Part shown: piece by piece, positions 8,673 to 25,303 of the stretch
How positions within the stretch are numbered: the first letter of the stretch is position 1
How the letters are laid out: every line of letters begins with the position of its first letter
Assembly (NCBI GenBank): GCA_038247045.1
Contig: JBBRVK010000003.1
Span: 1 to 36,914 of the forward strand
Length of the DNA: 36,914 nucleotides
From: Minisyncoccia bacterium
GTDB lineage: Bacteria > Patescibacteriota > Minisyncoccia > Phycocordibacterales > UBA9973
Direction: 5' to 3'
The notes under the pieces: generated by a model
Database searches by the model: none
What the model was told of the DNA's origin: nothing
What the model saw: only the letters and a program-made list of their open reading frames with translations
Made by a program: the position numbers and the translations under genes

Positions 8673-9794
8673 TTATTTTAAGGCCTTAATTCCAGGCAAG
8701 GTCCCTTTGGCTAGAAAATCAAGAGTAGCCCCTCCTCCCGTTGAAATAAAACCAAGTTTATCTTCAAGTTTTAATTTAGAAATAAGAGCAACGGTATCTC
8801 CACCACCAACTACACTTCCTGCTTTACTTTTAGCAATAAGTTTTAAAATCTTTTCTGTTCCAGCAGAGAAACCACTTTCATATTTTCCAAGTGGACCATT
8901 CCAAAGGATAAAACTCGCTTTTTCAATTAAACCACCTAGTAATTCCACTGTATCCTTACCAATATCAACGATTGACTCTTCAGAAAGAACTTCGTTTGGT
9001 TTAGCAAAACGACTTTTATCTCCCTCAGCGGCGACAACATCTATAGGTAAAATTAAATTAGTGTTTTTTAAGAAAGATTTAATCTGAATATTATTTTCCC
9101 CAACAAGAGAGTGACCTACTTCAAAACCTCTTCCTTTAAAAAAATCATTAGCAAGAGCACCGCCAATAAAAACATGGTCAGCATCGCGAAGAAACTTTTT
9201 AACTAAAGGAATTTTTGTTTCAAATTTTGAACCACCTAATATAAATAAAAATGGGTGTTTTGGATTAAAAGCCTTTGAAAGATTATTTATTTCATCAACT
9301 AACTGTAGGCCAGCATACCCTGGTAAATATTTTGTAATTCCAATAACAGAAGCGTGAGGACGATGAGAAACAGAAAAAGCATCATTAACATAGATATTAC
9401 CATAACGAGAAAGAGCTCGAGCAAAAGATGGAGAATTTTTCTTTTCACCTATTTCACGACGAAGATTTTCGAGCAAAACAATATCTCCACTCTTTAAATT
9501 ATTAACGGTTGTTTCTGTAATATCTGAAAAAATTGGCGTTTCAATAAAATTAAGGTTTGGAATAAACTTTTTAAGCCTTATTGCTACTGGCTTTAAACTC
9601 ATAAGAGCATCATCTCCAATATGAGAAAGAATAATAACAACTGCGCCTTTTTTGTGTAAATATTCAATAGTTGGCAATGAAGCTTTTATCCGAAAATCAT
9701 CCATGATTTTATCATCTTTCATTGGAACATTAAAATCAACACGAACAATGACCCTTTTCCCTTTCAAGTTTTCTATATCTTTAATTGATTTCAT
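8673..9794 (-). CDS. pgk: phosphoglycerate kinase
   Basis: RVDFNVP, LLENLR, YVNDAFSVSHRPHAS, WNGPLG, GGGDT, ISTGGGA. Confidence 0.97.
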   Translation of the reverse strand: MKSIKDIENLKGKRVIVRVDFNVPMKDDKIMDDFRIKASLPTIEYLHKKGAVVIILSHIGDDALMSLKPVAIRLKKFIPNLNFIETPIFSDITETTVNNLKSGDIVLLENLRREIGEKKNSPSFARALSRYGNIYVNDAFSVSHRPHASVIGITKYLPGYAGLQLVDEINNLSKAFNPKHPFLFILGGSKFETKIPLVKKFLRDADHVFIGGALANDFFKGRGFEVGHSLVGENNIQIKSFLKNTNLILPIDVVAAEGDKSRFAKPNEVLSEESIVDIGKDTVELLGGLIEKASFILWNGPLGKYESGFSAGTEKILKLIAKSKAGSVVGGGDTVALISKLKLEDKLGFISTGGGATLDFLAKGTLPGIKALK

Positions 9795-12730: not shown

Positions 12731-14536
12731 TTATGGTGAAATAGTCAGCTCTTGTTTAGTCCAAGCACCTGAAATTGTGATCGGCTTTGAAGTATCTTGA
12801 TATCCACTTTTACTAACAGAAACTGTATAAGAACCAAGAGTAAGAGTAGAAAATGAAACCTGCCCCGGAGGAATACACGACGAAGTATAAGTGAAAGAAA
12901 TATCAGAAATTGTTGGGGTATAAGAGGTATCTATTGTTGATAAAAATAATCGATAACGAAGATACCTGTCGCCATTATGTGATGCATTTATATTTTGATT
13001 AGTAGAAGTAAAGTAGGAAGAAGAAGTTCCATCGGGCCCAACAAAATTCCAAGTAGCACTATCGTTATTTGTTGCTATTTGAAACTTAACACTCGAGGTC
13101 CCCGTTTGAGCTGGCTCCGTAGCTGGACTCCAAACAATTTGTCTAAAATTACTAGAGGCACCTGTATCAAAAGTTGAAGAAGTCAGATAACCATTTGAAA
13201 CGTAACTAGAAGAAACTTTTTTCAGATTTAAATTACCAACAGAAGTACTTGTGTCTATATTCCCATCTGAAATTAAATATTTATTATCAACTCCAAATGA
13301 TTCTTGTCCACTACCCCCAGACCAGTCTGTTTGTGTTAAAAATCCTTGGTTTGTTGTTAAAGTTTTTGAATAACTACTTGGACCAGTTAGAGTAACAACA
13401 GCATCTGTGATAGGTAAACCTGTTGACTGATCTCGAATAACAACAAGAAGCCGATTACCGTTTTTAGGAGCCGTAACAATCTGCATATTTTGTGTTGTGT
13501 TTGGATCGATACCAAGAGAAAGCAATGGATTAGTTCCAATAATATCAAAAGTTCCATCTATTCCTAAAAGAGTGTAAGTGTCCCATTCAACACCAGAGAG
13601 AGTTAATTGACCACTACCATTAGTGACAAGCGATGAAGAATATTTATAAGTATCTGGAATTGTTCCAATTAACTTATTACCTTTCATATTAAAGTCAAAG
13701 CCAGGAGTAGCAACACATTGATTATTTACAGTAGAAAAATTAATAGTACTCGTACGATCAATAGTAAAAGATATTTGTGTTACTTGTTGCAAAACAACCG
13801 TAATGTTCGGCTTTGTTGGATTAGGATTACCACTACCGCCTACAGGATAAGTACGGTCAGAGGAATATCCACTTTTTGTAATAGTAATCTGGTATCCATT
13901 TGAAGAAGGTGGAGCATCAACAATCGTCAAGGTTCCATTTATATCAGTTTCCTCGTCTAAATTAATATTAGGGATAATATTATTATTTAAAATATTAACA
14001 TTTGCACCTGGCACTGGTAGACCAGAAGCATCAAAAACTCTTATCACCAGGGCTCCATTTGTTGAAGCTGTTTCAAGGTTTTTTGGAGCAATTTTTGTGG
14101 TGAAAGAAACTGGAGCCATACTACTACCACAAGTCGTACAAGTAATAGTTAATTCCACCATCTTCATATCAGCAGGAGATAAATCATGGGGAATTCCATT
14201 AAAAGTTCCATCAAATGGGTCGTCAATACTTCGAACAACTGTTTCAACTGTGAAAGTTTTATTATCTCGAGTAACTGTTTTAGATTGAGACAAAACACCA
14301 ACGGGTATACCATTTATAGTACCAACATCTTGATATGACAAATTACGTGCAACTTCAAACTGTTCATTAGCAATATTTGTCATTATTCCCTTTGCTCGAA
14401 TTAGGGCCATAACTTTTATAATTCCAGCAAAACCACTATAAATTGCAATTGAAACTGAAATAAAAATAACAATTGAGACCAAAGTTTCAATCAAAGTGAA
14501 TCCTCTAATTTTATTTTTATGCAGAAAAATATTCAT
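12731..14536 (-). CDS. large minor pilin with prepilin motif and carboxypeptidase-regulatory-like beta-sandwich repeats
   Basis: RG|FTLIETLVSIVIF; repeats VRVFDASGLPVPGANV...YQITITKSGY and RDQSTGLPITDAVVTL...YTVSVSKSGY. Confidence 0.85.
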   Translation of the reverse strand: MNIFLHKNKIRGFTLIETLVSIVIFISVSIAIYSGFAGIIKVMALIRAKGIMTNIANEQFEVARNLSYQDVGTINGIPVGVLSQSKTVTRDNKTFTVETVVRSIDDPFDGTFNGIPHDLSPADMKMVELTITCTTCGSSMAPVSFTTKIAPKNLETASTNGALVIRVFDASGLPVPGANVNILNNNIIPNINLDEETDINGTLTIVDAPPSSNGYQITITKSGYSSDRTYPVGGSGNPNPTKPNITVVLQQVTQISFTIDRTSTINFSTVNNQCVATPGFDFNMKGNKLIGTIPDTYKYSSSLVTNGSGQLTLSGVEWDTYTLLGIDGTFDIIGTNPLLSLGIDPNTTQNMQIVTAPKNGNRLLVVIRDQSTGLPITDAVVTLTGPSSYSKTLTTNQGFLTQTDWSGGSGQESFGVDNKYLISDGNIDTSTSVGNLNLKKVSSSYVSNGYLTSSTFDTGASSNFRQIVWSPATEPAQTGTSSVKFQIATNNDSATWNFVGPDGTSSSYFTSTNQNINASHNGDRYLRYRLFLSTIDTSYTPTISDISFTYTSSCIPPGQVSFSTLTLGSYTVSVSKSGYQDTSKPITISGAWTKQELTISP

Positions 14537-14542
14537 ATGTTT

Positions 14543-15757
14543 CTAATTAATATTATCCATAACGGAATACATCGGACTTATCATTGAAATGGCAAAAAAT
14601 CCAACAGCAACACCGATAAAAATCATCAGAACTGGTTCAATAATAACTGAAAGATTTTTTGTCTTTTCATCAACTTCTGCCTCATAAAAAGAAGCAACAT
14701 CCATTAGCATACTCGAAAGCTTCCCCGTTTCCTCGCCAACTTCAATCATCTCTCCAACCATTACTGGATAAAGTTGTGTATTTTCTTTAAAAGAAACTGA
14801 TAAAGGCACACCTTTTTCAATCGAATCAATAGACCTGTGAATTAATTCTTTATAGTGAATATTTTGAAGAACTTCTTCTGTAATAGCAAGAGATTTTGAA
14901 ACATCAACACCCGAGGAAAGAAGAGATGAAAGTGTGCGAGCTGTTCGAGCAGTATTCATCTCTTTAACTAAATCTCCTAGAAATGGAATCTTTAATATTA
15001 ATAAGTCAAAATATCTTTGAGTAATTTTTAATTTAGCAAACATTACCCCTGCTCCAATGATTGAGATAACCATCAAAAAAAATAAAATAAAATGTTGAGA
15101 CAACGAATCAGATATAAAAATAATAAATTTAGTTGAAGCAGGTAATTCTGTACCTAAATCTTTAAATGTTTTAGTTAAGGTTGGAACAACATAAATCATC
15201 ATTAAAACTCCGATGATAAAAATTGCCCCAATAATAACACTTGGATATATTAAAGCTCCTTTAATTTTTTTGTTTAAATCATAAGTTTTTTTAAGAGTCA
15301 TTCCTGTTTCAGAGAGAGTTCTAGGTAAACCACCAGACTCCTCCCCAGAGTGAACCATTGAAACAAAGACCCCAGAAAAAACTTTCGGAAATTTTTTCAT
15401 ACCAGAAGAGAGAGTACCACCTTTGTTTATATCATCAATTAGACTTCTAATGATACTATTTAGTGTTTTATTTGTTGATTGTTTTTCAAGAACTGTTAGG
15501 GCTCGAGTTAAGGGTAAACCAGCAGAAAGCATTCCACTTAGATTATTTGTAAACATTATTTTTTCAGACAAAGAAACTCCTCCAAAAAAATCAAAAGATA
15601 GAAATGGCTTAGATTCTTTTTCAGAAAATTCTTTTATTGATAAAGGAGTACTCCCTCTTTCTCTTATTTCTCGAGCCAAAGTAAAAGTATCAGCAGATTC
15701 TACTATTCCTTCAACAATTTCATTATTTTTATTTTGTTCTTTATATTTAAATTTCAT
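14543..15757 (-). CDS. pilC: type IV pilus inner-membrane platform protein (PilC/GspF family)
   Basis: NLSGMLSAGLPL, GEESGGL, KIKGALIYP, GEETGKL, IIEPVLMI. Confidence 0.93.
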   Translation of the reverse strand: MKFKYKEQNKNNEIVEGIVESADTFTLAREIRERGSTPLSIKEFSEKESKPFLSFDFFGGVSLSEKIMFTNNLSGMLSAGLPLTRALTVLEKQSTNKTLNSIIRSLIDDINKGGTLSSGMKKFPKVFSGVFVSMVHSGEESGGLPRTLSETGMTLKKTYDLNKKIKGALIYPSVIIGAIFIIGVLMMIYVVPTLTKTFKDLGTELPASTKFIIFISDSLSQHFILFFLMVISIIGAGVMFAKLKITQRYFDLLILKIPFLGDLVKEMNTARTARTLSSLLSSGVDVSKSLAITEEVLQNIHYKELIHRSIDSIEKGVPLSVSFKENTQLYPVMVGEMIEVGEETGKLSSMLMDVASFYEAEVDEKTKNLSVIIEPVLMIFIGVAVGFFAISMISPMYSVMDNIN

Positions 15758-15762
15758 CAGAT

Positions 15763-17526
15763 TTATTCAGAGACAACACGCAAAACTTCTTCTGTAGAGG
15801 TTATACCTGAAGCTACTAAAAATATTCCATCTTCTAACATTGTCATCATCCCTTCTTTTTTTGCCATTTTTTCTATTTCATCAGCAGAGGAACTTTTTAA
15901 AATTAATTCTTTAATAGTAGAGCTGACTTCTAACACTTCATGAATCCCCACTCTCCCTTTATAGCCATCAGGTGAATCCTTGTTAGGTTTTGGTTTATAG
16001 AAAGGAATATCTTTCCACTCTGCATCTTCTTTTACTATATTTTCTTTTTTTAAAGCATCTAATACAACCTCTAGATTTACTACTTTTTTAAGGGCTTCAA
16101 TCTCAACATTACTTAGTAGATATTTTTCTTTTTCTTCTGAGAGTTTTCTAACTAAACGTTGAGCAATAACAGTTTTTACTGTTGAAACAATTAGAAATGA
16201 TTCAACCCCCATATCAATCATACGAGGAATTGCCCCAGCGGCAGAATTAGTATGGATAGTGGAGAGGACTAAGTGACCAGTCAAAGAAGCATTAACAGCA
16301 AGTCCTGCCGTTTCTCCATCTCTAATCTCTCCTACCATTATAATGTCAGGATCTTGACGAAGTAAAGTTCTAAGTCCATTAGCAAAAGTTAAACCAATCT
16401 CTGATTTTGTCTGAGTCTGATTAATTCTAGCCATCTGATACTCAATTGGATCTTCCACTGTTGATATATTCACATCTGGTGTATTTAAAATATCCAACAT
16501 TGTATAAAGGGTTGTCGTTTTACCAGAACCTGTTGGCCCTGCGGTTAAAAGCATTCCATTACGCTTCTTCATACCTCGGTGAATTCTCTCTAGTGCTTCA
16601 CCATGAAATCCAAGTCCTTCCAAGGAAAATCCCTTTGCGTTTTCTCTTAAGATTCTTATAACTGTTTTTTCTCCAAAATAAGTTGGTAGAGTTGAAACAC
16701 GAAAAGAAACACCTCCTTGTTCATTAACAATTTTAAATCTACCATCTTGAGGAAGTCTCTTTTCGTCTAATTTCAAATTAGAAAGAACCTTAATGCGAGC
16801 AACAATTCCAGCTGCAGTATCTTTAGGTAGCACCATTGCATCGTGCAAAATACCATCAATACGATATCTAACAACAAGAGACTCTTCACAGGGTTCAATA
16901 TGAACATCAGAAGCACCTTGGAAAATAGCGTGCGAGATAAGAGTATCAACGATTTTAACTATTGGCAGGTCTTCTGCTAACTCTTTTTCTGTTTTATTTC
17001 CTTGATTAATCTTTTCTCCAAAAATAGAATTATCAATTACAGGAGATAAAGTGTTGCTCTCTTTTTTAATAATATCTTCAAAATCCGCTTGTAGACTTTT
17101 TTTATAAAGAGAAAGAGCTTCTTTTATTGAATCAGAGCTTGTCATACGAGGAAGAATTCGTAAGCCAACCTTCTTTTTAATAAAATCAATTACAGGCAAA
17201 TTATCAACATCTAACATCGCAACCTCAAGACCACTCGCTGATTTTTTATAAGCAATAATATTACTATTACGCGCAATTGGTTCAGGAATCAAATTTAAAA
17301 CTTCTGGAGGGATATGTTCCCCCTTCAAACTAACAAAAGGAATGCCAAGCGAAACAGCTTGCATACTATTCCAATCTTTTTCAGTTAATTTTCCATCGCT
17401 CAATAATATTGCTCCTAGTGATTGACCAGTTTCTCTAGCTTTTTTTTGGGACATTGCAATGTCATTTTTACTTACCAAGCCAGAGGTGTTTAGAAGATTT
17501 ATAATTGTCCCTTCGTCTATATGCAT
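15763..17526 (-). CDS. pilB: type IV pilus assembly ATPase (PilB/GspE family)
   Basis: ASDVHIEP, RYRIDG, RLPQDGR, GPTGSGKTTT, TVEDPIEY, LRQDPDIIMVGEIRD, TGHLVLSTIH, GYKGRVGIHE; likely start ATG 17526. Confidence 0.94.
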   Translation of the reverse strand: MHIDEGTIINLLNTSGLVSKNDIAMSQKKARETGQSLGAILLSDGKLTEKDWNSMQAVSLGIPFVSLKGEHIPPEVLNLIPEPIARNSNIIAYKKSASGLEVAMLDVDNLPVIDFIKKKVGLRILPRMTSSDSIKEALSLYKKSLQADFEDIIKKESNTLSPVIDNSIFGEKINQGNKTEKELAEDLPIVKIVDTLISHAIFQGASDVHIEPCEESLVVRYRIDGILHDAMVLPKDTAAGIVARIKVLSNLKLDEKRLPQDGRFKIVNEQGGVSFRVSTLPTYFGEKTVIRILRENAKGFSLEGLGFHGEALERIHRGMKKRNGMLLTAGPTGSGKTTTLYTMLDILNTPDVNISTVEDPIEYQMARINQTQTKSEIGLTFANGLRTLLRQDPDIIMVGEIRDGETAGLAVNASLTGHLVLSTIHTNSAAGAIPRMIDMGVESFLIVSTVKTVIAQRLVRKLSEEKEKYLLSNVEIEALKKVVNLEVVLDALKKENIVKEDAEWKDIPFYKPKPNKDSPDGYKGRVGIHEVLEVSSTIKELILKSSSADEIEKMAKKEGMMTMLEDGIFLVASGITSTEEVLRVVSE

Positions 17527-17596
17527 ATGTTTATTATAACAACAAACGAGGAGCACAAGCAAATGAATATTGATTAATTCGCTTAGTGTCCGAGAA

Positions 17597-17666: not shown

Positions 17667-18092
17667 TTATTTAAGTCTTCCAAATTGATAATCTGAACTT
17701 TCTATATCTTTCTTAATCTTATCTTCAGCTTCTGTAATATATTTTTCTTTTTCCTCTAACGTATTATTCACCCAAAGTGAATAAGATAAACTCGTAGCTG
17801 AAGTATTAGTCCTTATAATCATTGGTATATTGTAAGAATGTTGAGATTCAATAAATTTAATAAGCCGATTGCTAACTAATTTTTGTGTTGCAAACATTAG
17901 TAGATACTGACTAGCATCATGAATAACCCCTTGCCATGGATAAACAGAATTCATCAACCAATAATCAGCAGAAACAGCGAGTTTCTCTTCTATCGCCAGC
18001 CGACCTATTGATTTTGCTTCTTCTTGTGAAGAACAAGCTGTATAAACAAAAACAATTCCCTTATCTTTTTTGTCTATTTTATCAAATATCAT
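17667..18092 (-). CDS. cutA: CutA divalent-cation tolerance family protein
   Basis: VYTACSSQEEAKSIGRLAIEEKLA, SVYPWQG, HSYNIPMI, YSLWV. Confidence 0.85.
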   Translation of the reverse strand: MIFDKIDKKDKGIVFVYTACSSQEEAKSIGRLAIEEKLAVSADYWLMNSVYPWQGVIHDASQYLLMFATQKLVSNRLIKFIESQHSYNIPMIIRTNTSATSLSYSLWVNNTLEEKEKYITEAEDKIKKDIESSDYQFGRLK

Positions 18093-18178: not shown

Positions 18179-18739
18179 TTATTTTATTTTAGAAAGATAC
18201 TTATAATTTACTAAAATAATAATTATAAAAAGTGAGAGAGTAAGAGCCATTATCGGCATAGTAATATAACCAAATTCATATATATAACGCACAGCACAAG
18301 AAGCTTGGTTAGCATTTGAAACACTAGTCCCTGTGGCACAAGCTAAGCCTTTTGTTCCTCCATTTTCTACATAAATGTTATAGATAGATACTAGTGAACC
18401 TATAATCGCAAAAACTATAGAAAAATCAACGATTGATTTATCTTTCTTATACAATTCCATTGAGAAAAGAATTAATTGTGGGTATAAAAATATTCTTTGA
18501 ATCCAACAAAGCTCACAAGGAGGAAATCCTACAATTTGTGAATAAAACAATGATAAAACAAAAGCCCCTAGAGCAGCTAAAAAACCTAGAACAAATGTAT
18601 ATTTTTTAACAATTAATAAAAATGGGTTTTGTTTTTTCTGAGCTAGTAGTAAATTAATCATTAGTAATAAAATAAAAATCTGAAGAACAATTGTTCCAAG
18701 AGATAAAATTTTATTAACAATTTCTATATATGCTGGCAT
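18179..18739 (-). CDS. disulfide bond formation protein B (DsbB/BdbC family)
   Basis: SLFYSQIVGFPPCELCWIQRIFLYP, second Cys pair, FGYITMPIMAL; likely start ATG 18739. Confidence 0.9.
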   Translation of the reverse strand: MPAYIEIVNKILSLGTIVLQIFILLLMINLLLAQKKQNPFLLIVKKYTFVLGFLAALGAFVLSLFYSQIVGFPPCELCWIQRIFLYPQLILFSMELYKKDKSIVDFSIVFAIIGSLVSIYNIYVENGGTKGLACATGTSVSNANQASCAVRYIYEFGYITMPIMALTLSLFIIIILVNYKYLSKIK

Positions 18740-18740
18740 A

Positions 18741-19304
18741 TTATTGAGGTAAAATAAACTGTATTTGCTCTGCCAAAAAAGTAAGTGGAACCTCCCCCGT
18801 TGCTTGTGCTTCAGCTGGAAATTGCCAAACATTATCTTTTTTAATTGGAGCTGTCGGGCTTTTTATTGAAAACTTATAACCTGGAAATATCCAAACTGAT
18901 CCATATTTAGATGAAGTATTCACACATTCGCCAGAAGGAACAGCTCCTTCTTTTAAGATTGAACAAACTACAGGCTTGTCTATAGATGTTATTTTTATAC
19001 CATTCTTAAAAGTCCATGTTGGGTAACCTTCAATTTTTTTATCTAAACAAATTTGTGTTTGAGTATTATCAGGATTAGAACATTCAATATAAGGAATATA
19101 TTTTTTTGAGGTACCAAATTCTGCTTTTTGGACCTGACAATGAGGACACCAAAAAGCTCCATAGAATTGAGCACCTTCTGCTGTTAAGGCCTTAGCAAAA
19201 CCATCATATTTACTGGGTCCAAAGCTAGACCTATTCAAGTAAATACCTAACCCACCAACCAGTATAACAACAAAAATAATGAATAATATAAATTTAGTTT
19301 TCAT
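18741..19304 (-). CDS. membrane-anchored thioredoxin-like oxidoreductase (type seen fused to bacterial VKOR)
   Basis: N-terminal TM, FYGAFWCPHCQVQKAEFG, YIECS, IEGYPTW. Confidence 0.85.
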   Translation of the reverse strand: MKTKFILFIIFVVILVGGLGIYLNRSSFGPSKYDGFAKALTAEGAQFYGAFWCPHCQVQKAEFGTSKKYIPYIECSNPDNTQTQICLDKKIEGYPTWTFKNGIKITSIDKPVVCSILKEGAVPSGECVNTSSKYGSVWIFPGYKFSIKSPTAPIKKDNVWQFPAEAQATGEVPLTFLAEQIQFILPQ

Positions 19305-19316
19305 AAATATATTATA

Positions 19317-21635
19317 TCAGATAGACAGCCCAAGCCATAGCCAGACAAAATAGTGCTTAATCCCCTGCCAAATATATTCAAATGCTTTATTTATTATATT
19401 TTTCTTTTTTATTACAATAACTTCTTCTATTTTTTCTTTTTGAATTAAATTACTACTATCAATTTCTGGCTTCTCTAAAATAATTTTATTTGTAACTATT
19501 TTTGATTTTATCTTTTCATATTTAATAAAAATATTTTCCTTTATTTCTGGAAGTATAATGACTTCTTTTTCGTTCTCTTTAATTAATTTTAAAGGCTCTT
19601 TATTTTCTAATATTGCTACTTCTGTTTTCACGTTTTGTATAGGAATGTTATTTTCTAATGGTTTAGAAAAATCTTTTAAAATATCACTCCACGATAAATG
19701 AAGTACGGCTGGGATAGCATAAGATGTTGCCCAAACACGAGTATCCTCGTCTGCATCTTTTTCTAAACCACCATCTACATTTTGTCTATCTACTAAATAT
19801 TTTTCAGCTTTTGTTTTATCAAAATTAATGTCTGCAATTTGTAAAACCCAAGAAGTCGAAAAAGAATTTCCAAACCCTCCATCTACTACTGACTGTTGCA
19901 ACATTAAATAATTTTTAGCCTTAGAAATAGCTTCTGACACTCCAGAAATACCACTAAATCCTTTTAATGCTTCAACGCCAGCTGCGGTCATATCAATACT
20001 TCCCCATGAACCATTAATTGTTTGTTTCCCGATTAAATGATTTACATCTTTTATAATTATTTCATCTGCTTCATTATATCCAGCATTAAAAAGAACAATT
20101 AGAGCAAAGATGTCATCATTATCTAATGTTTTATCTCCAAATTGTTGACCATCAAAATTATCAGTAATTTTTTTAATATAATCTATTTTTGTTCCATTAT
20201 AAGGATTTATACCCAATGACATCAAAGACATCGCTCGTCTTTCTATATCAGTAAGGACAGAAGAATCAATATCATTTAATTTTAAATAATTTAAAATATT
20301 AGATTTTAAAAGTGAATTATTACCTGTTGCAATAGCAATAGCCGCCCAATCTGTATACATAGGAGAACCAAATGATCCATTGTTTTGGTGAGCAGACAAA
20401 AAATCTAGAGCATTATCAACAGAAAAAGTTTTTATTATAGGAGTAGAACCAGAACCTCCTCCACTTGAATTTTTTTCTGTGACTTCTATTGTAAAACTAG
20501 CCGATGGAACATATAAAGATTTACTTCCAACTGCATTTAATGAACCAGCTGAATTTAAAACCATAGAACATGTTCCGTCGATAACAGTTTTACAAAATTG
20601 AGTCCCTAGTGTCACAGTTACTTCTGATAATGGACTCCAAATCATATTATAATTGGTATCAAAATTACTTTCTTCTTCTGCTGTAAAACTTATAGTTTCT
20701 CCTACTACCCCTGAAGTCTTTGAAGCAGAAATACGAAGTGGATGAGAATTATATGTTAATAAAAGCTCTTCTCCATTTGATAAATGATGATTATTAAGAG
20801 CAACAGTTCCATAATTTAAATTACTAAACCATCCCCAATAAAAATAATTCACGTTATCACTTGAACTACCTCCCAATTCATCTAGAGTCCCAAGTGTTTT
20901 AGGAAAAGAACTATCTTTCTTAAAAGATGAATCATACCAACTCCAAGTATTTGATAATTTAGATTGCTCAACTGCGCATCTTCCATTAAATGTAATTGGT
21001 GAATTATCTGCAATTGATTCGGCGCAAGGTAAAACTGTTTCAGGTCCATCAAATAAGACAATATCACCAGAATAAACTTTTAAATTTATTGTTGGATTTA
21101 CATTAATATTATAAGTTGCTTTTTTTCCACTAATACTAACAGTTAAAACCTGATTATAAATAGCTACAGAACTATTAAAACCAGTTATATTTTCAGTGTT
21201 AACTGTTTCATTTTTTATACTGTTGTCACTATAGGTTCCTTTTATTGATAAACCGGAGATATCTAATACTTCCCCCACTTTATAATTTATTTTATTTGCA
21301 GGCGCATCTATTAAAATACTTGAAAGAATGATAAGGGCTCTTACTTCAATAACATATTGAATTGTATTTTCTCCAGATGAAACATTTAAGGTTTGTTGAG
21401 AAATTGGATTAGAACTATCAAAACCAGTTATATTTGTTGTTGTGATTGGAACTTCTATACCGTCTTTATTTATTACTATTAACCCAGATATATCTAAAGG
21501 TTCATTAGTCGAATAGATCAACTTACTTGCTGGAATTTTAATTATAAGACCTTCAGCAAAAACATTATTAAAACTAAATAAAACATATCCTATTATAATA
21601 AAACTGATAAATTTTTTAATTAAATTTTTTTTCAT
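19317..21635 (-). CDS. surface protein: signal peptide, two Ig-like repeats, DUF4430-like domain, prenyltransferase/squalene-oxidase-repeat alpha/alpha barrel; putative cobalamin-binding protein
   Basis: Two PxxKxxYxxxExLDISGL...ITGF(D/N)SS repeats; LDELGG...YWGWFSN...LSNGEELLLTY; repeated QxxxGSFG/GSWG/DGGFG motifs; hydrophobic C-terminal tail. Confidence 0.75.
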   Translation of the reverse strand: MKKNLIKKFISFIIIGYVLFSFNNVFAEGLIIKIPASKLIYSTNEPLDISGLIVINKDGIEVPITTTNITGFDSSNPISQQTLNVSSGENTIQYVIEVRALIILSSILIDAPANKINYKVGEVLDISGLSIKGTYSDNSIKNETVNTENITGFNSSVAIYNQVLTVSISGKKATYNINVNPTINLKVYSGDIVLFDGPETVLPCAESIADNSPITFNGRCAVEQSKLSNTWSWYDSSFKKDSSFPKTLGTLDELGGSSSDNVNYFYWGWFSNLNYGTVALNNHHLSNGEELLLTYNSHPLRISASKTSGVVGETISFTAEEESNFDTNYNMIWSPLSEVTVTLGTQFCKTVIDGTCSMVLNSAGSLNAVGSKSLYVPSASFTIEVTEKNSSGGGSGSTPIIKTFSVDNALDFLSAHQNNGSFGSPMYTDWAAIAIATGNNSLLKSNILNYLKLNDIDSSVLTDIERRAMSLMSLGINPYNGTKIDYIKKITDNFDGQQFGDKTLDNDDIFALIVLFNAGYNEADEIIIKDVNHLIGKQTINGSWGSIDMTAAGVEALKGFSGISGVSEAISKAKNYLMLQQSVVDGGFGNSFSTSWVLQIADINFDKTKAEKYLVDRQNVDGGLEKDADEDTRVWATSYAIPAVLHLSWSDILKDFSKPLENNIPIQNVKTEVAILENKEPLKLIKENEKEVIILPEIKENIFIKYEKIKSKIVTNKIILEKPEIDSSNLIQKEKIEEVIVIKKKNIINKAFEYIWQGIKHYFVWLWLGLSI

Positions 21636-21641
21636 ATAATT

Positions 21642-22151
21642 TTATATTCCTTCCTGATTCCATCTAATAATATCGCCTTCTTTTAAAATATACTTTGATA
21701 CCCCCACTTGTGCTTTTTTATCATTTACATAATAAATCCAATACTTACCAGAAGAGCCGGCATTTCCATTTATTTCTTTTATAAAAATTCCTAAGCCAGA
21801 ATTCTCTGTATACTTAAAACTAAATTGGTTATCTTTTAAATTTTCTTTTTCAATTTGCTGCATCGCATCAAAAACAGACGAACCTTCTTTCAACTCTGTT
21901 CCATAGCTTTTATCTTTCACAACTAAAGATATTTTTATATTTTGATAAGTTTCTGGTGATTTTAAATCTTTAATCTTTATCGTATTGGGAGAAGGAATTT
22001 GTTCTTTAATTTTCTCCTCATCCAAAATATAGTTTTGTTCTCTTGGAACAGTTAGAGATATTTCTTTTTCGCGACGAAAATACAAAACACCTAAAAATAT
22101 TAAAATAATTAATCCAGCCCCGATATATCTATATTGTTTTTTATTAATCAT
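21642..22151 (-). CDS. membrane-anchored DUF4430 (transcobalamin C-terminal-like) protein
   Basis: N-terminal TM; GSSVFDAM, GIFIKEING, YWIYYVNDKKAQVGVSKYILKEGDIIRW; start ATG 22151 (the longer ORF call runs into the riboswitch). Confidence 0.87.
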   Translation of the reverse strand: MINKKQYRYIGAGLIILIFLGVLYFRREKEISLTVPREQNYILDEEKIKEQIPSPNTIKIKDLKSPETYQNIKISLVVKDKSYGTELKEGSSVFDAMQQIEKENLKDNQFSFKYTENSGLGIFIKEINGNAGSSGKYWIYYVNDKKAQVGVSKYILKEGDIIRWNQEGI

Positions 22152-22168
22152 ATATTTACTATTAAATA

Positions 22169-22198
22169 ATAAAACCCCCTCCGAGGAGGGGGTTTTAT
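22169..22198 (-). terminator. riboswitch-associated intrinsic terminator
   Basis: Minus strand ataaaaccccctcc-tc-ggagggggttttat followed by a U-rich run, between the aptamer and the DUF4430 ATG. Confidence 0.85.
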
Positions 22199-22217
22199 AT
22201 CTAAAAACTTTAGAGAT

Positions 22218-22343
22218 ATTCTCCTGCTCGGGAAACATCAATGTATTAAGACCGGACTTGTCCCCTTAGGGCATTACCGTTGCGGCACAGTGGAGGAATT
22301 TATCCCGCCTTGGCGGAATGGAACCTCACTTCCAAATACATTA
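22218..22343 (-). ncRNA. cobalamin riboswitch (short, AdoCbl-variant/Cbl-II-like)
   Basis: Minus strand aatgtatt-tGGAAgtgaGGT...AAtTCCtccACtGtgCCGCaACgGTaa-gccctaagggga-cAAGTCcG-gtctt-aatacatt: closing helix aatgtatt/aatacatt, core motifs and B12 box, followed by a P13-like hairpin; lies upstream of DUF4430 genes. Confidence 0.88.
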
Positions 22344-22349
22344 ATTTAA

Positions 22350-22355
22350 ATTGTA
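22350..22355 (-). promoter_or_regulatory. -10 element for the riboswitch transcript
   Basis: TACAAT about 7 nt upstream of the aptamer 5' strand. Confidence 0.5.
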
Positions 22356-22363
22356 AAAAGAAA

Positions 22364-22957: not shown

Positions 22958-25303
22958 TTAGACTATATCACAAACTCCTGAGACACAAGCAAGCTCTCTC
23001 TTTACTTCTGTTTCATCCTTTATCTCGTATGTCACAATTTTTGAAAAATCAAAATCTGGCATCTTACTAGTAAGCTCTTTGTATGTTTTTTCACTAATAG
23101 CTTCATATGGGGCAAGTTGATAAACATGATTAGATCTTGGAAGAAAAGATAAGCCTCCAACAATATCCCAATTCTGATACAACCAATGAGCAACCTTAAT
23201 CCATTCATTCTCCCCGACAGAAATAGTAACAGAGGGATTATGTTCTGTATAGTTTACCTTAACAACTTTCCAATGTTCTAATTGTTCAATAGCAGTGATA
23301 TCATCTTTACAAATTGCATTCTCTGGGGCTTTCATCGGAAATTCTAAAACAAAAGTATTAGCATTATCTAGAGTCTGACCAACTTCGGGGTGATAAGGAA
23401 CACCCTGATCTTTCATCATTTTAAAGAGTGAATCTGTAGCAGAAATACGAACACGCCTAATATAATAAGGAGCATGACGGGGATGCATACCAGAGGCACA
23501 ATCAACAGTTTGAGAAACTGTCCCAGAAGGTTTTACTGCTGTAATACAAGTAGATTCATTGATTCCAAACCTCTTGGCATATATTTTATTAACACGAATT
23601 GTTTCAAGACGAAGCTTTGACAACATGATTGGGTCACGAGAAAGTTTTGAATCCCACTGTCCTGTAACAGAAACCCCCAACAATCTCTCATCTTCACAAT
23701 TCTCACGCCACTCTTTAGATAAATAACCAAATTTAGTCAAGGTAGCTTGATAAGTTCCAAGAATTGTTGCTACACGAATTTTTCTCATTAGTGATTCTTC
23801 GGTATCTTCGGATCGAGCTACAACCTCTGAAAGATTACAAAACTGTCTTGATCTTAAAATAATTTCACCACATGGATTTGTCCCCATATCCCCGATAAAG
23901 TCAGCTGACTTTTCAATTCTTCGTTTTGGTAATGATTTATATAGTGACCCACGGTTGAAGATTCCTCTTTCACCACTTCCTGACTCCATTAAAGAAATCC
24001 ATTCTTTTAGAAATTCTGTTTCTGTTGGTTTTGTATTATAAACAGCCGAGTTATTTGCTAACATGCGTTGTCCTTCATTTATCCAGAATTGACCATTCTT
24101 AGCATCACGCATATCTTGGTCGTCAAGATCAGATAGTGAAATAAGGGCACTACGACGAACACCACCAGAAACCACACATTCACCTATTTTACAAATAATG
24201 TCATGAGCATCTATATTACGAAGATGACGTCCCTGGCGACGGATAATACGCTCTCTTGTAAATCCAAGTAGGTCTATCAATGGTTTTGGACCAGAACTCT
24301 TCCCTCCCATGATTTTTAGACGAGCTCCAGCGGGCCTGAGAAGAGAAAAATCAAACTCAACATCTTCACCATCAAACCAAATTTTCATACCGTGAACAAA
24401 AGCATCTGCCCAACCCTCTTTTGTATCAGGAACAACAAAAATAGGAAGTTTTTTACCGGTTTGATTTTTTATCTGAGGAAGTGATTGAATGTTTTTACTT
24501 TCAACAGAGAAACCAACACCAGTTCCACACATAGAGATATAAATAATATCTCCAAAGTCTTGAAATTTTGAAGGGGCCACAAAAGAACAATTATAAGCAC
24601 ACACATTTGTTTTATCGGCTGCAGCACCTGCGAACTGTAATAATCTCATTGAGGGCATCGCTTCTTGTTTTAGAATTGACTCTCTCACTTCTTTATATTC
24701 ACTTTCTTTTAAAGAATTACCTAGATTTTTTTTCATAAAATCTACATAACGATCTATAGTCTCAACCCAAGTCTCTCGTCTTCCTTCTTCTTCAATCCAT
24801 TTAGCATAAGTACGGTAATAAACAAATTCTGAAAGTGGATTTCTAAAATATTTTTTACTTTCTTCTGCAAGTTTTTTTACACGGTCAGGAACAACCACAC
24901 TGTGAGATCTTAATCTAGCTCTTTCTTCACGATAAAGAATATAATTTTTAGAAGTCTTTACAAAATCAGCTAGCATTAATTCTTGCTCCACTGAGTCTTG
25001 AACTCCTTCCACTGTTGGGATAAAGTTCTTATATTTCTTGGCTATTTTAACAATTTCCATTAAAACTCGGTTCGCCACCATATCGGCTTCCTTTTGAGAT
25101 CCTTCACCACTTGCAAGCATAGCTTTATTAATAGCACTCGTAACTTTTTCAATATCAAAAGGAACGATGACCCCATCTCTTTTTTGAACGCTTTTAATAA
25201 AACTATTCTTAACTATTTTTTTCTCTATTGCAACTTCAATTTTCGTATCAACGACTTTTTTTATTTCTTTCTTTGCAACAGATACTTTCTTTTTTAAAGG
25301 CAT
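22958..25303 (-). CDS. nrdJ: class II (adenosylcobalamin-dependent) ribonucleotide reductase with N-terminal ATP cone
   Basis: VQKRDG...FDIEKV ATP cone; RTYAKW, MPSMR, YNCSF, GGVRRSALISLS, TNPCGEI, KPSGTVS, C-terminal CVSGVC; no beta subunit gene nearby. Confidence 0.92.
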   Translation of the reverse strand: MPLKKKVSVAKKEIKKVVDTKIEVAIEKKIVKNSFIKSVQKRDGVIVPFDIEKVTSAINKAMLASGEGSQKEADMVANRVLMEIVKIAKKYKNFIPTVEGVQDSVEQELMLADFVKTSKNYILYREERARLRSHSVVVPDRVKKLAEESKKYFRNPLSEFVYYRTYAKWIEEEGRRETWVETIDRYVDFMKKNLGNSLKESEYKEVRESILKQEAMPSMRLLQFAGAAADKTNVCAYNCSFVAPSKFQDFGDIIYISMCGTGVGFSVESKNIQSLPQIKNQTGKKLPIFVVPDTKEGWADAFVHGMKIWFDGEDVEFDFSLLRPAGARLKIMGGKSSGPKPLIDLLGFTRERIIRRQGRHLRNIDAHDIICKIGECVVSGGVRRSALISLSDLDDQDMRDAKNGQFWINEGQRMLANNSAVYNTKPTETEFLKEWISLMESGSGERGIFNRGSLYKSLPKRRIEKSADFIGDMGTNPCGEIILRSRQFCNLSEVVARSEDTEESLMRKIRVATILGTYQATLTKFGYLSKEWRENCEDERLLGVSVTGQWDSKLSRDPIMLSKLRLETIRVNKIYAKRFGINESTCITAVKPSGTVSQTVDCASGMHPRHAPYYIRRVRISATDSLFKMMKDQGVPYHPEVGQTLDNANTFVLEFPMKAPENAICKDDITAIEQLEHWKVVKVNYTEHNPSVTISVGENEWIKVAHWLYQNWDIVGGLSFLPRSNHVYQLAPYEAISEKTYKELTSKMPDFDFSKIVTYEIKDETEVKRELACVSGVCDIV

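Follow-up and report, generated by a model that had tools for sequence, protein, structure and literature searches.

In animals, vitamin B12 is carried by transcobalamin, intrinsic factor and haptocorrin (2bb5/2bb6, 2pmv and 4kki/4kkj), secreted proteins of family PF01122 in which an N-terminal alpha6/alpha6 barrel, or toroid, precedes a C-terminal beta-grasp domain with a hairpin insert. The SLBB superfamily was defined by Burroughs, Balaji, Iyer and Aravind (2007, Biol Direct 2:4; PMC1796856), and the sections of that paper available to us describe bacterial proteins in which a toroid is fused N- or C-terminal to the SLBB domain, along with fusions to immunoglobulin (Ig) folds; a further extracellular SLBB protein is often encoded in the same operon, the hosts usually lack B12 synthesis, and the predicted role is the scavenging of B12 or its precursors. 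At the membrane, the available parts of Santos et al. (2018, eLife; PMC5997447) describe an nrdJ-cbrS-cbrT-pduO cluster in Lactobacillus delbrueckii, in which CbrT was shown to transport cobalamin (Cbl) and for which 6FNP is the complex with the energy-coupling factor, ECF-CbrT. Transport without an ECF module has precedents in BtuM, which transports B12 as a solitary protein of S-component type (Rempel et al. 2018, Nat Commun; PMC6072759), and in some BioY proteins (PMC11109136), again as described in the available parts of these papers. Here we analyse a protein of 772 amino acids (aa) encoded in a 36,914-nucleotide (nt) stretch of contig JBBRVK010000003.1 of a Minisyncoccia bacterium, hereafter the window. 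It is probably a surface corrinoid (B12) capture protein of a B12-auxotrophic, B12-dependent bacterium of Patescibacteria type.

An earlier note on this DNA, made from the sequence alone, had proposed that the protein resembles a transcobalamin with its two modules in reverse order. This idea is correct, yet it had already been published as the 2007 prediction; what is new here is the lineage and the gene context of the SLBB-toroid protein. As in the proteins described in the available sections of PMC1796856, a secreted SLBB (DUF4430) domain is joined to an alpha/alpha toroid, with the toroid on the C-terminal side. The hosts named in those sections are low-GC Gram-positives, planctomycetes and some euryarchaea, whereas the host here is of Patescibacteria type; their operons carry the ECF genes CbiO/CbiQ, whereas no EcfT was found here in 71 genomes; and, unlike the systems described there, the neighbouring genes here encode a lone S-component-like protein, a class II ribonucleotide reductase (RNR) and DsbB/thioredoxin (Trx) proteins, with a riboswitch inside the gene row. 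The protein shares with the animal carriers the toroid, the beta-grasp domain with its hairpin insert and secretion. Unlike them, and at 7-17% identity, it has the domains in reversed order (beta domain at residues 181-297, toroid at 400-656) instead of the N-terminal barrel and C-terminal beta domain of PF01122 carriers, places a sandwich and a Gly/Ser linker between the two, and adds Ig domains, a spacer and a tether. A literature search, with most subscription journals outside it, found no paper connecting the Candidate Phyla Radiation with these genes or with a cobalamin riboswitch, and nothing on bacterial homologues appears in PMC2667541 or PMC4350170.

The open reading frame (ORF) lies on the minus strand, which the earlier note left unstated, and the plus-strand frame is riddled with stops (Table 1). 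A search in which 7999 candidates were scored gave 123 relatives at E<=0.001, and a comparison with 1.84 billion cluster representatives gave 3095 matches at E<=0.001, of which 1536 reach E<=1e-10 and 625 reach E<=1e-30. The ORF is a real, conserved gene. Relatives with a source name come from Patescibacteria, Paceibacterota, Nomurabacteria and similar groups; in a protein-language-model atlas the core lies nearest to Minisyncoccota and Nomuraibacteriota clusters (0.92 and 0.91), and similar DUF4430/toroid clusters of Chloroflexota and Bacillota score lower, matches that serve as leads only. In an alignment of 98 relatives (97 sequences counted at toroid columns), the conserved core spans about residues 181-665, and W267, D429, W430, R466 and P478 are invariant. 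The AlphaFold2 model has a mean predicted local distance difference test score (pLDDT) of 83.2, with residues 181-665 mostly above 90.

The gene is preceded by an adenosylcobalamin (AdoCbl) riboswitch aptamer, found with an E-value of 1.1e-6 when 5.4 kb were searched and of 6.5e-8 when 321 nt were, and the sole match in the 815-kb genome. The aptamer is followed by an expression platform, an intrinsic terminator, and then by B12-related genes: the gene of a stand-alone DUF4430/SLBB protein and, 6 nt after it, the 772-aa gene. A 199-aa ORF with a TTG start (21642-22241, minus strand) overlaps the 3' part of the riboswitch and the terminator, and the true start of the DUF4430 gene is therefore the ATG at 22151. 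The 169-aa partner named in the earlier note thus had the right size, its start being fixed by the riboswitch and terminator. From the behaviour of this riboswitch family, we infer that riboswitch and terminator directly control the DUF4430/772-aa gene pair. Lying inside the gene row, the riboswitch would shut off just the surface-capture genes when B12 is plentiful. Because an AdoCbl riboswitch and terminator precede the gene pair, the link to B12 is much stronger than the earlier note knew.

The same arrangement recurs in relatives. Across 185,579 species, each represented by a single genome, 339 loci with relatives were found, the best 80 of which were analysed. Searches at Rfam gathering level placed a riboswitch just 5' of the DUF4430 gene in four of nine loci (63.5 bits in L004, 61.1 in L043 and 59.9 in L013; in L008, RF00174 at 39.9 bits, with a cut-off of 31.5); when four of the remaining five were searched again, sub-threshold matches appeared in L003 (49.3 bits) and L017 (47.6 bits) and none in L025 or L037. 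An nhmmer profile built from five riboswitch instances (the window and the four loci), and hence circular for those five, found an upstream riboswitch-like element on the same strand in 65 of the 80 loci. In 11 of the 15 loci that lack it, the upstream DNA is shorter than 1.2 kb; the other four (L032, L055, L056 and L064) have full flanks. Where a locus holds both the element and a DUF4430 match, the element comes first in 61 of 62 cases.

Along the minus strand, the genes run in the order class II RNR, S-component-like protein, riboswitch and terminator, DUF4430 protein, 772-aa protein, Trx-like protein, DsbB and CutA. Counted over the 80 loci by tblastn with the window proteins, a DUF4430 paralogue accompanies the family in 70, always on the same strand and encoded by an ORF of its own (75-232 aa, the lowest value coming from one truncated at a contig end); the Trx-like gene occurs in 39, the RNR and DsbB genes in 36 each, the S-component in 30, CutA near the cluster in 11 and a major facilitator superfamily gene near it in 4. 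The RNR scores 289.5 bits against TIGR02505, below the 340-bit cut-off. PF07155 matches all 29 orthologues of the 173-aa S-component-like protein; by sequence, 6fnp_A alone among PDB chains matches this protein (E 0.025; profile E 0.072). The L. delbrueckii cluster, in the available parts of PMC5997447, likewise has a B12-dependent RNR gene adjoining a small S-component gene, with pduO; PduO is present in the genome here as well.

That genome, 815 kb long and 85% complete, holds two genes for PduO-type cob(I)alamin adenosyltransferases (G000:C32:8529-9044 and G000:C4:391-906) and encodes proteins with B12-binding domains; no CobA, CobS, CbiB, FecCD or EcfT was found in it at that completeness. 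Of 31 related genomes, 7 encode the 772-aa family, 9 the S-component, 22 an RTPR-like RNR and 16 PduO, and all 7 genomes with the family also hold S-component, RNR and PduO, though as kin genomes they are not independent. The conserved linkage to class II RNR, a CbrT-like S-component and PduO supports the B12 reading. EcfT (PF02361) was found neither in these 31 genomes, of which 22 are of high quality, nor in another 40 with the family, which is not proof of absence; a control search was positive in 11 of 14 well-known genomes. An S-component homologue is present in 24 of these 40 further genomes.

Structure comparison ties the beta domain to the animal carriers. Residues 181-395 were folded separately with 35 sequences (pLDDT 93.7, predicted template-modelling score 0.86), and an exhaustive VIA-align search of 48,161 solved chains returned for residues 181-297, in descending order, haptocorrin (4kkj_A 311-409; Z 13.3, root-mean-square deviation (rmsd) 1.8, 93 residues aligned), the R. 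gnavus DUF4430 protein 3u7z_B (Z 12.6), intrinsic factor (2pmv_A 294-398; Z 12.5), the human transcobalamin beta domain (5no0_A; Z 12.3) and bovine transcobalamin (2bb6_A 317-413; Z 12.2). These five matches align 91-95 residues at rmsd 1.8-2.1, and the next row, at Z 9.2, matches the second domain, the beta-sandwich. The hairpin that follows the helix in the beta-grasp of the SLBB clade is present in the model (helix 38-44, then strands 49-54 and 68-74, in the numbering of the 181-395 model). As modelled, the beta domain is specifically of carrier type. In sequence searches, the family profile finds the haptocorrin beta domain (residues 381-431) at E 0.011, and, counted over 60 relatives, the Pfam family Cobalamin_bind (PF01122) matches 33, locally at about profile positions 203-258 of 317 (best E 2.1e-7). 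For the sandwich at residues 298-390, the top match is domain MG1 of E. coli alpha2-macroglobulin (Z 9.2), followed by many generic sandwiches at Z 7-9.

In the model, the second module is one alpha6/alpha6 barrel whose size and shape would suit a carrier. With VIA-align used for a second look at the Foldseek matches, the toroid aligns with the intrinsic factor alpha domain at Z 21.0, over 229 of that chain's 267 residues, with transcobalamin at Z 18.9-19.7 and with haptocorrin at Z 18.9. Its conserved residues are D429, W430, D463, R466, N506, D507, D508, D548, T550, T594, W596, W635, T637 and Y639.

Taken together, these features point to the following route. When AdoCbl is scarce, the terminator would remain unformed and transcription would run into the DUF4430, 772-aa, Trx-like and DsbB genes. 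The signal peptide would export the 772-aa protein, the co-transcribed DsbB/Trx pair could oxidise the conserved Cys204-Cys220, and the disordered spacer and Trp-rich helix would tether the protein to the membrane. The beta-grasp and the toroid, connected through the sandwich and the Gly/Ser linker, may then close on one corrinoid as in transcobalamin, with the chain order reversed. The earlier note also raised the conjecture that the barrel clamps B12 together with the separate DUF4430 protein. The ligand would pass, possibly by way of the stand-alone SLBB protein, to the CbrT-like S-component encoded upstream, and the PduO-type adenosyltransferases would make AdoCbl for the class II RNR encoded next to it. 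Corrinoid binding itself we infer from the folds and from this context.

Several observations weigh against B12 capture. The aptamer falls 2.4 bits short of the Rfam gathering score (47.6 against 50), so no RNA family in the window reaches gathering and the element surfaced at an E-value threshold; the S-component-like and RNR genes lie upstream of the riboswitch and hence outside its control here. The DUF4430-like domain of the earlier note is upheld by its fold and by relatives (PF14478 in 17 of 60), yet neither the 772-aa protein nor its fragments match PF14478 even at E<=10, and PF01122 gives no match to the protein. A PDB sequence search with a profile of the SLBB domain and sandwich returned 13 matches (E 0.13-1.3), among them no carrier and instead a cellulosomal scaffoldin, NOMO2 and Ras. 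The structure comparison with transcobalamin that the earlier note proposed brought up the carriers for residues 181-297 in the wide VIA-align search and not in Foldseek, where the 181-395 model matched tandem-Ig receptors at rmsd 10-18 A and a few single beta-sandwiches (macroglobulin MG, PKD and SoxYZ) at 3.6-6.6 A, with no cobalamin carrier among the best 50 matches listed. The literature search described above found no binding or transport data for any bacterial member. On the toroid, too, the evidence is divided: by fold or by sequence, it is not on its own assignable to the carriers as against the terpene-cyclase and prenyltransferase toroids. Its best matches are drimenyl-diphosphate synthase (Z 22.5-22.8) and squalene-hopene cyclase (Z 22.1-22.2), so that it lies slightly closer to class II terpene cyclases (18-22% identity) than to carriers (12-16%), and SQHop_cyclase_C matches 58 of the 60 relatives. 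The protein has a literal D-N-D-D at 505-508, with N506, D507 and D508 in 95-97 of 97 sequences. Finally, haem uptake has been argued for a related system of Lactobacillus sakei, to which we return below.

These toroid data bear on whether the barrel is catalytic, that is, whether the protein is a secreted enzyme resembling terpene cyclases, prenyltransferases or (alpha/alpha)6 glycosidases, to which the SLBB domain would be an accessory and whose substrates would be lipids or glycans of the envelope or of a host. We consider this reading very improbable. Beyond the cyclase matches and the near-invariant NDD, it can draw on the family profile, which finds squalene-hopene cyclase at E 8.1e-15 through QW-like repeats, on Z scores of 18.7-19.1 with prenyltransferase beta subunits and 19.6 with a GH76 mannanase (which its entry describes as an inactive double-Asp variant), and on Prenyltrans (PF00432) in 12 of the 60 relatives (best E 7.4e-5). 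Class II terpene cyclases form their active site between two barrels. The 772-aa protein has one 12-helix toroid of about 257 residues in place of such a beta-gamma didomain, whereas the cyclase chains, at 469-623 residues, are twice as long and align with it over 240-244 residues (244 of 469-493 for chains whose aligned ranges span the whole length). D505, the first Asp of the DxDD motif, occurs in just 19 of 97 sequences, and HMMER aligned the DVDDTA of squalene-hopene cyclase weakly to another repeat, at 546-551 (7.0 bits). An acidic-x-T/W-A signature opens the inner helix of every repeat (427-432, 462-468, 506-511, 547-552, 593-597 and 635-640) and looks, from the sequence, like a repeat feature lining one mouth of the barrel; because this D-x-T-A signature recurs in each repeat, it appears structural. 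No Zn site of prenyltransferase type is evident: no column between 400 and 660 has at least 30% Cys, and 467 is the sole column with at least 30% Cys plus His (R 60, H 38). The thioester (CGEQ-type) Cys of the alpha2-macroglobulin/complement thioester-containing domain (TED) is absent, there being no Cys after residue 356. TED_complement matches 30 of the 60 relatives, and the TED and macroglobulin similarities are at fold level only. The non-catalytic barrel of the earlier note is favoured by the single toroid and by the lack of an evident Zn site and of a thioester Cys; the near-invariant NDD speaks against it. The protein is moreover predicted to be secreted, and riboswitch and context indicate B12.

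The ligand might instead be a tetrapyrrole other than complete cobalamin, for instance haem or a precursor of the corrinoids, and the system would then be one for iron or haem acquisition. This we regard as quite unlikely. Lsa1839/Lsa1840 of Lactobacillus (Latilactobacillus) sakei are, like the proteins here, extracellular transcobalamin beta-/alpha-like proteins whose genes are linked to an ECF-type transporter, and the available sections of the preprint (10.1101/864751) argue for haem uptake on the grounds that deleting the ECF operon with these split alpha-/beta-like proteins affects it and that haem could be docked into a homology model. Haptocorrin-type binders are also promiscuous for corrinoids (4kkj is a cobinamide complex). 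The L. sakei system differs in being divided between two proteins and in having a complete ECF module, and those sections of the preprint make no mention of a riboswitch. Against haem stand the AdoCbl riboswitch that controls the cassette here and in most relatives, and the linkage to AdoCbl-type RNR and PduO. A further reading is that the protein acts chiefly as an adhesin or docking protein, its Ig domains and toroid binding a host surface or a B12-loaded host protein so that B12 is taken from the host cell. The small genome of Patescibacteria type (815 kb), the type IV pilus genes just downstream and the Ig-like accessory domains that vary among relatives would fit it, and Burroughs et al. 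suggested, in the available sections of PMC1796856, that accessory domains serve as polysaccharide tethers. Many relatives of 580-650 aa, however, keep the core (181-665) without Ig domains, and the near-universal features are the SLBB partner and the riboswitch, consistent with direct ligand capture; we hold an adhesin to be unlikely.

Every element of the domain layout that the earlier note read from the sequence is present. The signal peptide has its hydrophobic helix (5-20) and NNVFA/EG c-region, the two Ig-like repeats appear as strands in the model and as Big_3 matches, the further beta domain is a modelled beta-sandwich, the SSGGGSGS linker is present with low pLDDT, the alpha/alpha-barrel is a single 12-helix toroid, and the E/K/I-rich spacer and Trp-rich C-terminal helix correspond to a disordered stretch and to helix 747-769. 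The 'Ig stalk' of that note is doubtful: with the signal peptide cleaved, the Ig pair would be the free distal end, and the C-terminal spacer and helix are the likelier tether. A hydrophobic N terminus is found in 92 of the 98 family members. The modelled beta domains are weak at about 35-100 (pLDDT 45-73) and better at 101-180 (82-94), and the Ig-like domains are a variable accessory, with Big_3 in 11 and Bact_surface_Ig-like in 13 of the 60 relatives. Pfam and NCBIfam matches of the 772-aa protein alone are weak (Big_3, SQHop_cyclase_C at E 0.0099 and TIGR01787 at E 0.0059). By its hydropathy, the C-terminal helix does not qualify as a classical membrane span (Kyte-Doolittle maximum 0.66 in a 17-residue window), and 36 of the 98 relatives have a true hydrophobic C-terminal anchor in place of the Trp-rich ending. 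That ending (...IW..IK..F.WLWLGLSI) recurs as W..I...F.WLL.KLGF in many relatives and is specific to this family; the idea of a general sorting signal was dropped, the ending being unique to the 772-aa protein among the 1341 ORFs of the genome.

Table 1 Features of the 772-aa gene and its surroundings (positions in the window; residues of the 772-aa protein)
Feature	Position	Strand	Basis and remarks
772-aa surface protein	19317-21635	-	Signal peptide, two Ig-like domains, SLBB beta-grasp, beta-sandwich, Gly/Ser linker, toroid, disordered spacer, C-terminal Trp-rich helix
Predicted signal peptide, residues 1-27	21555-21635	-	KK...hydrophobic...NNVFA/EG; sequence reading and modelled helix 5-20
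Two Ig-like (Big_3-type) domains, residues ~35-180	21096-21533	-	Big_3 E 1.9e-4, two stretches; modelled strands
Transcobalamin-type SLBB/DUF4430-like beta-grasp, residues 181-297	20745-21095	-	VIA-align; conserved Cys204/Cys220, invariant Trp267
Ig/MG/PKD-like beta-sandwich, residues 298-390	20466-20744	-	VIA-align; PKD E 0.013
Flexible SSGGGSGS linker, residues 391-399	20439-20465	-	pLDDT <50 at 391-396; GGGS kept in family consensus
Single alpha6/alpha6 toroid, residues 400-656	19668-20438	-	12 helices (406-644) in model; Q-x-x-DG-x-[FW]G ... D/T-x-[TW]-A repeats
Disordered E/K/I-rich spacer, residues 657-745	19401-19667	-	pLDDT 33-45 (disordered stretch 672-745 in model)
C-terminal amphipathic Trp-rich helix, residues 746-772	19320-19400	-	Modelled helix 747-769; probable membrane tether
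AdoCbl riboswitch aptamer (RF01482, clan CL00101)	22203-22360	-	Full model 1-149; 47.6 bits
Intrinsic terminator (expression platform)	22169-22198	-	13-bp GC-rich stem and U tail; 5 nt past aptamer, 18 nt before ATG
Membrane-anchored stand-alone DUF4430/SLBB protein, 169 aa	21642-22151	-	PF14478 E 8.3e-15
ECF S-component-like permease (CbrT-like), 173 aa	22364-22885	-	PF07155, 30.4 bits against a cut-off of 26.7
Class II (AdoCbl-dependent type) ribonucleotide reductase with ATP-cone	22958-25303	-	PF21995, PF03477; TIGR02505 E 4.8e-86
Membrane-anchored thioredoxin-like protein (CPHC)	18741-19304	-	12 nt downstream of 772-aa gene
DsbB/BdbC-type disulfide oxidoreductase	18179-18832	-	PF02600 1.3e-12, NF002849 4.3e-25
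CutA1 homologue	17667-18092	-	After DsbB

Directly downstream of the B12 cluster lie secretion/pilus genes of type II/IV (12731-17562, minus strand), including those for a T2SSE ATPase (15763-17562) and T2SSF (14543-15757), the latter adjoined by a 601-aa ORF (12731-14536, minus strand).

In 19 of the 80 loci, among them L043 (9132-9662) and L066 (9299-9868), the gene just downstream of the 772-aa homologue encodes a membrane protein of family DUF6580 (PF20221), about 176-189 aa long, with assignments at E 4e-47 and 8e-42. In L066, an extra small DUF4430-like ORF (8959-9336; 125 aa, E 1.4e-4) lies between the 772-aa homologue and the DUF6580 gene, and would be a third SLBB protein there. The DUF6580 gene and the PF07155-type gene, the latter in 30 of the 80 loci, never occur in the same locus, which suggests that their products are alternative small permeases of the same system. 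An hhalign comparison of the S-component profile with one DUF6580 protein detected no relation (probability 0.1), and phmmer searches of two DUF6580 proteins against PDB sequences returned nothing relevant and no link to BtuM.

A tentative extension of the capture reading is that these loci encode a B12 importer of an undescribed type, in which a riboswitch-controlled, tethered transcobalamin-like binder and a second tethered SLBB protein might feed a solitary, ECF-free permease of PF07155 or DUF6580 type; we think this possible, with the odds against it. The available parts of the BtuM paper (PMC6072759) give a precedent, a small protein of S-component fold that imports B12 without an ECF module in the host. 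BtuM differs in having no known extracellular binder, and PDB searches showed no sequence similarity between it and the 173-aa or DUF6580 proteins. CbrT, by contrast, needs the ECF module, and solitary CbrT failed to complement E. coli according to the available parts of PMC5997447, whereas here no EcfT was found and the similarity to CbrT is weak. If such an importer exists, it would be a binding-protein-dependent S-component system, and DUF6580 would gain a function.

Organisms of Patescibacteria type have tiny genomes and no B12 synthesis, and many depend on an AdoCbl-type RNR for making DNA precursors, so that the route by which they acquire B12 is central to their dependence on other microbes. 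The family described here is large and closely linked to a B12 riboswitch. It is relevant to the 2007 prediction, to the dispute over B12 or haem as the ligand in Lactobacillus and to the proposal that the animal B12 carriers are of bacterial origin, as well as to the question whether permeases of S-component type can operate without an ECF module when paired with an extracellular binder.

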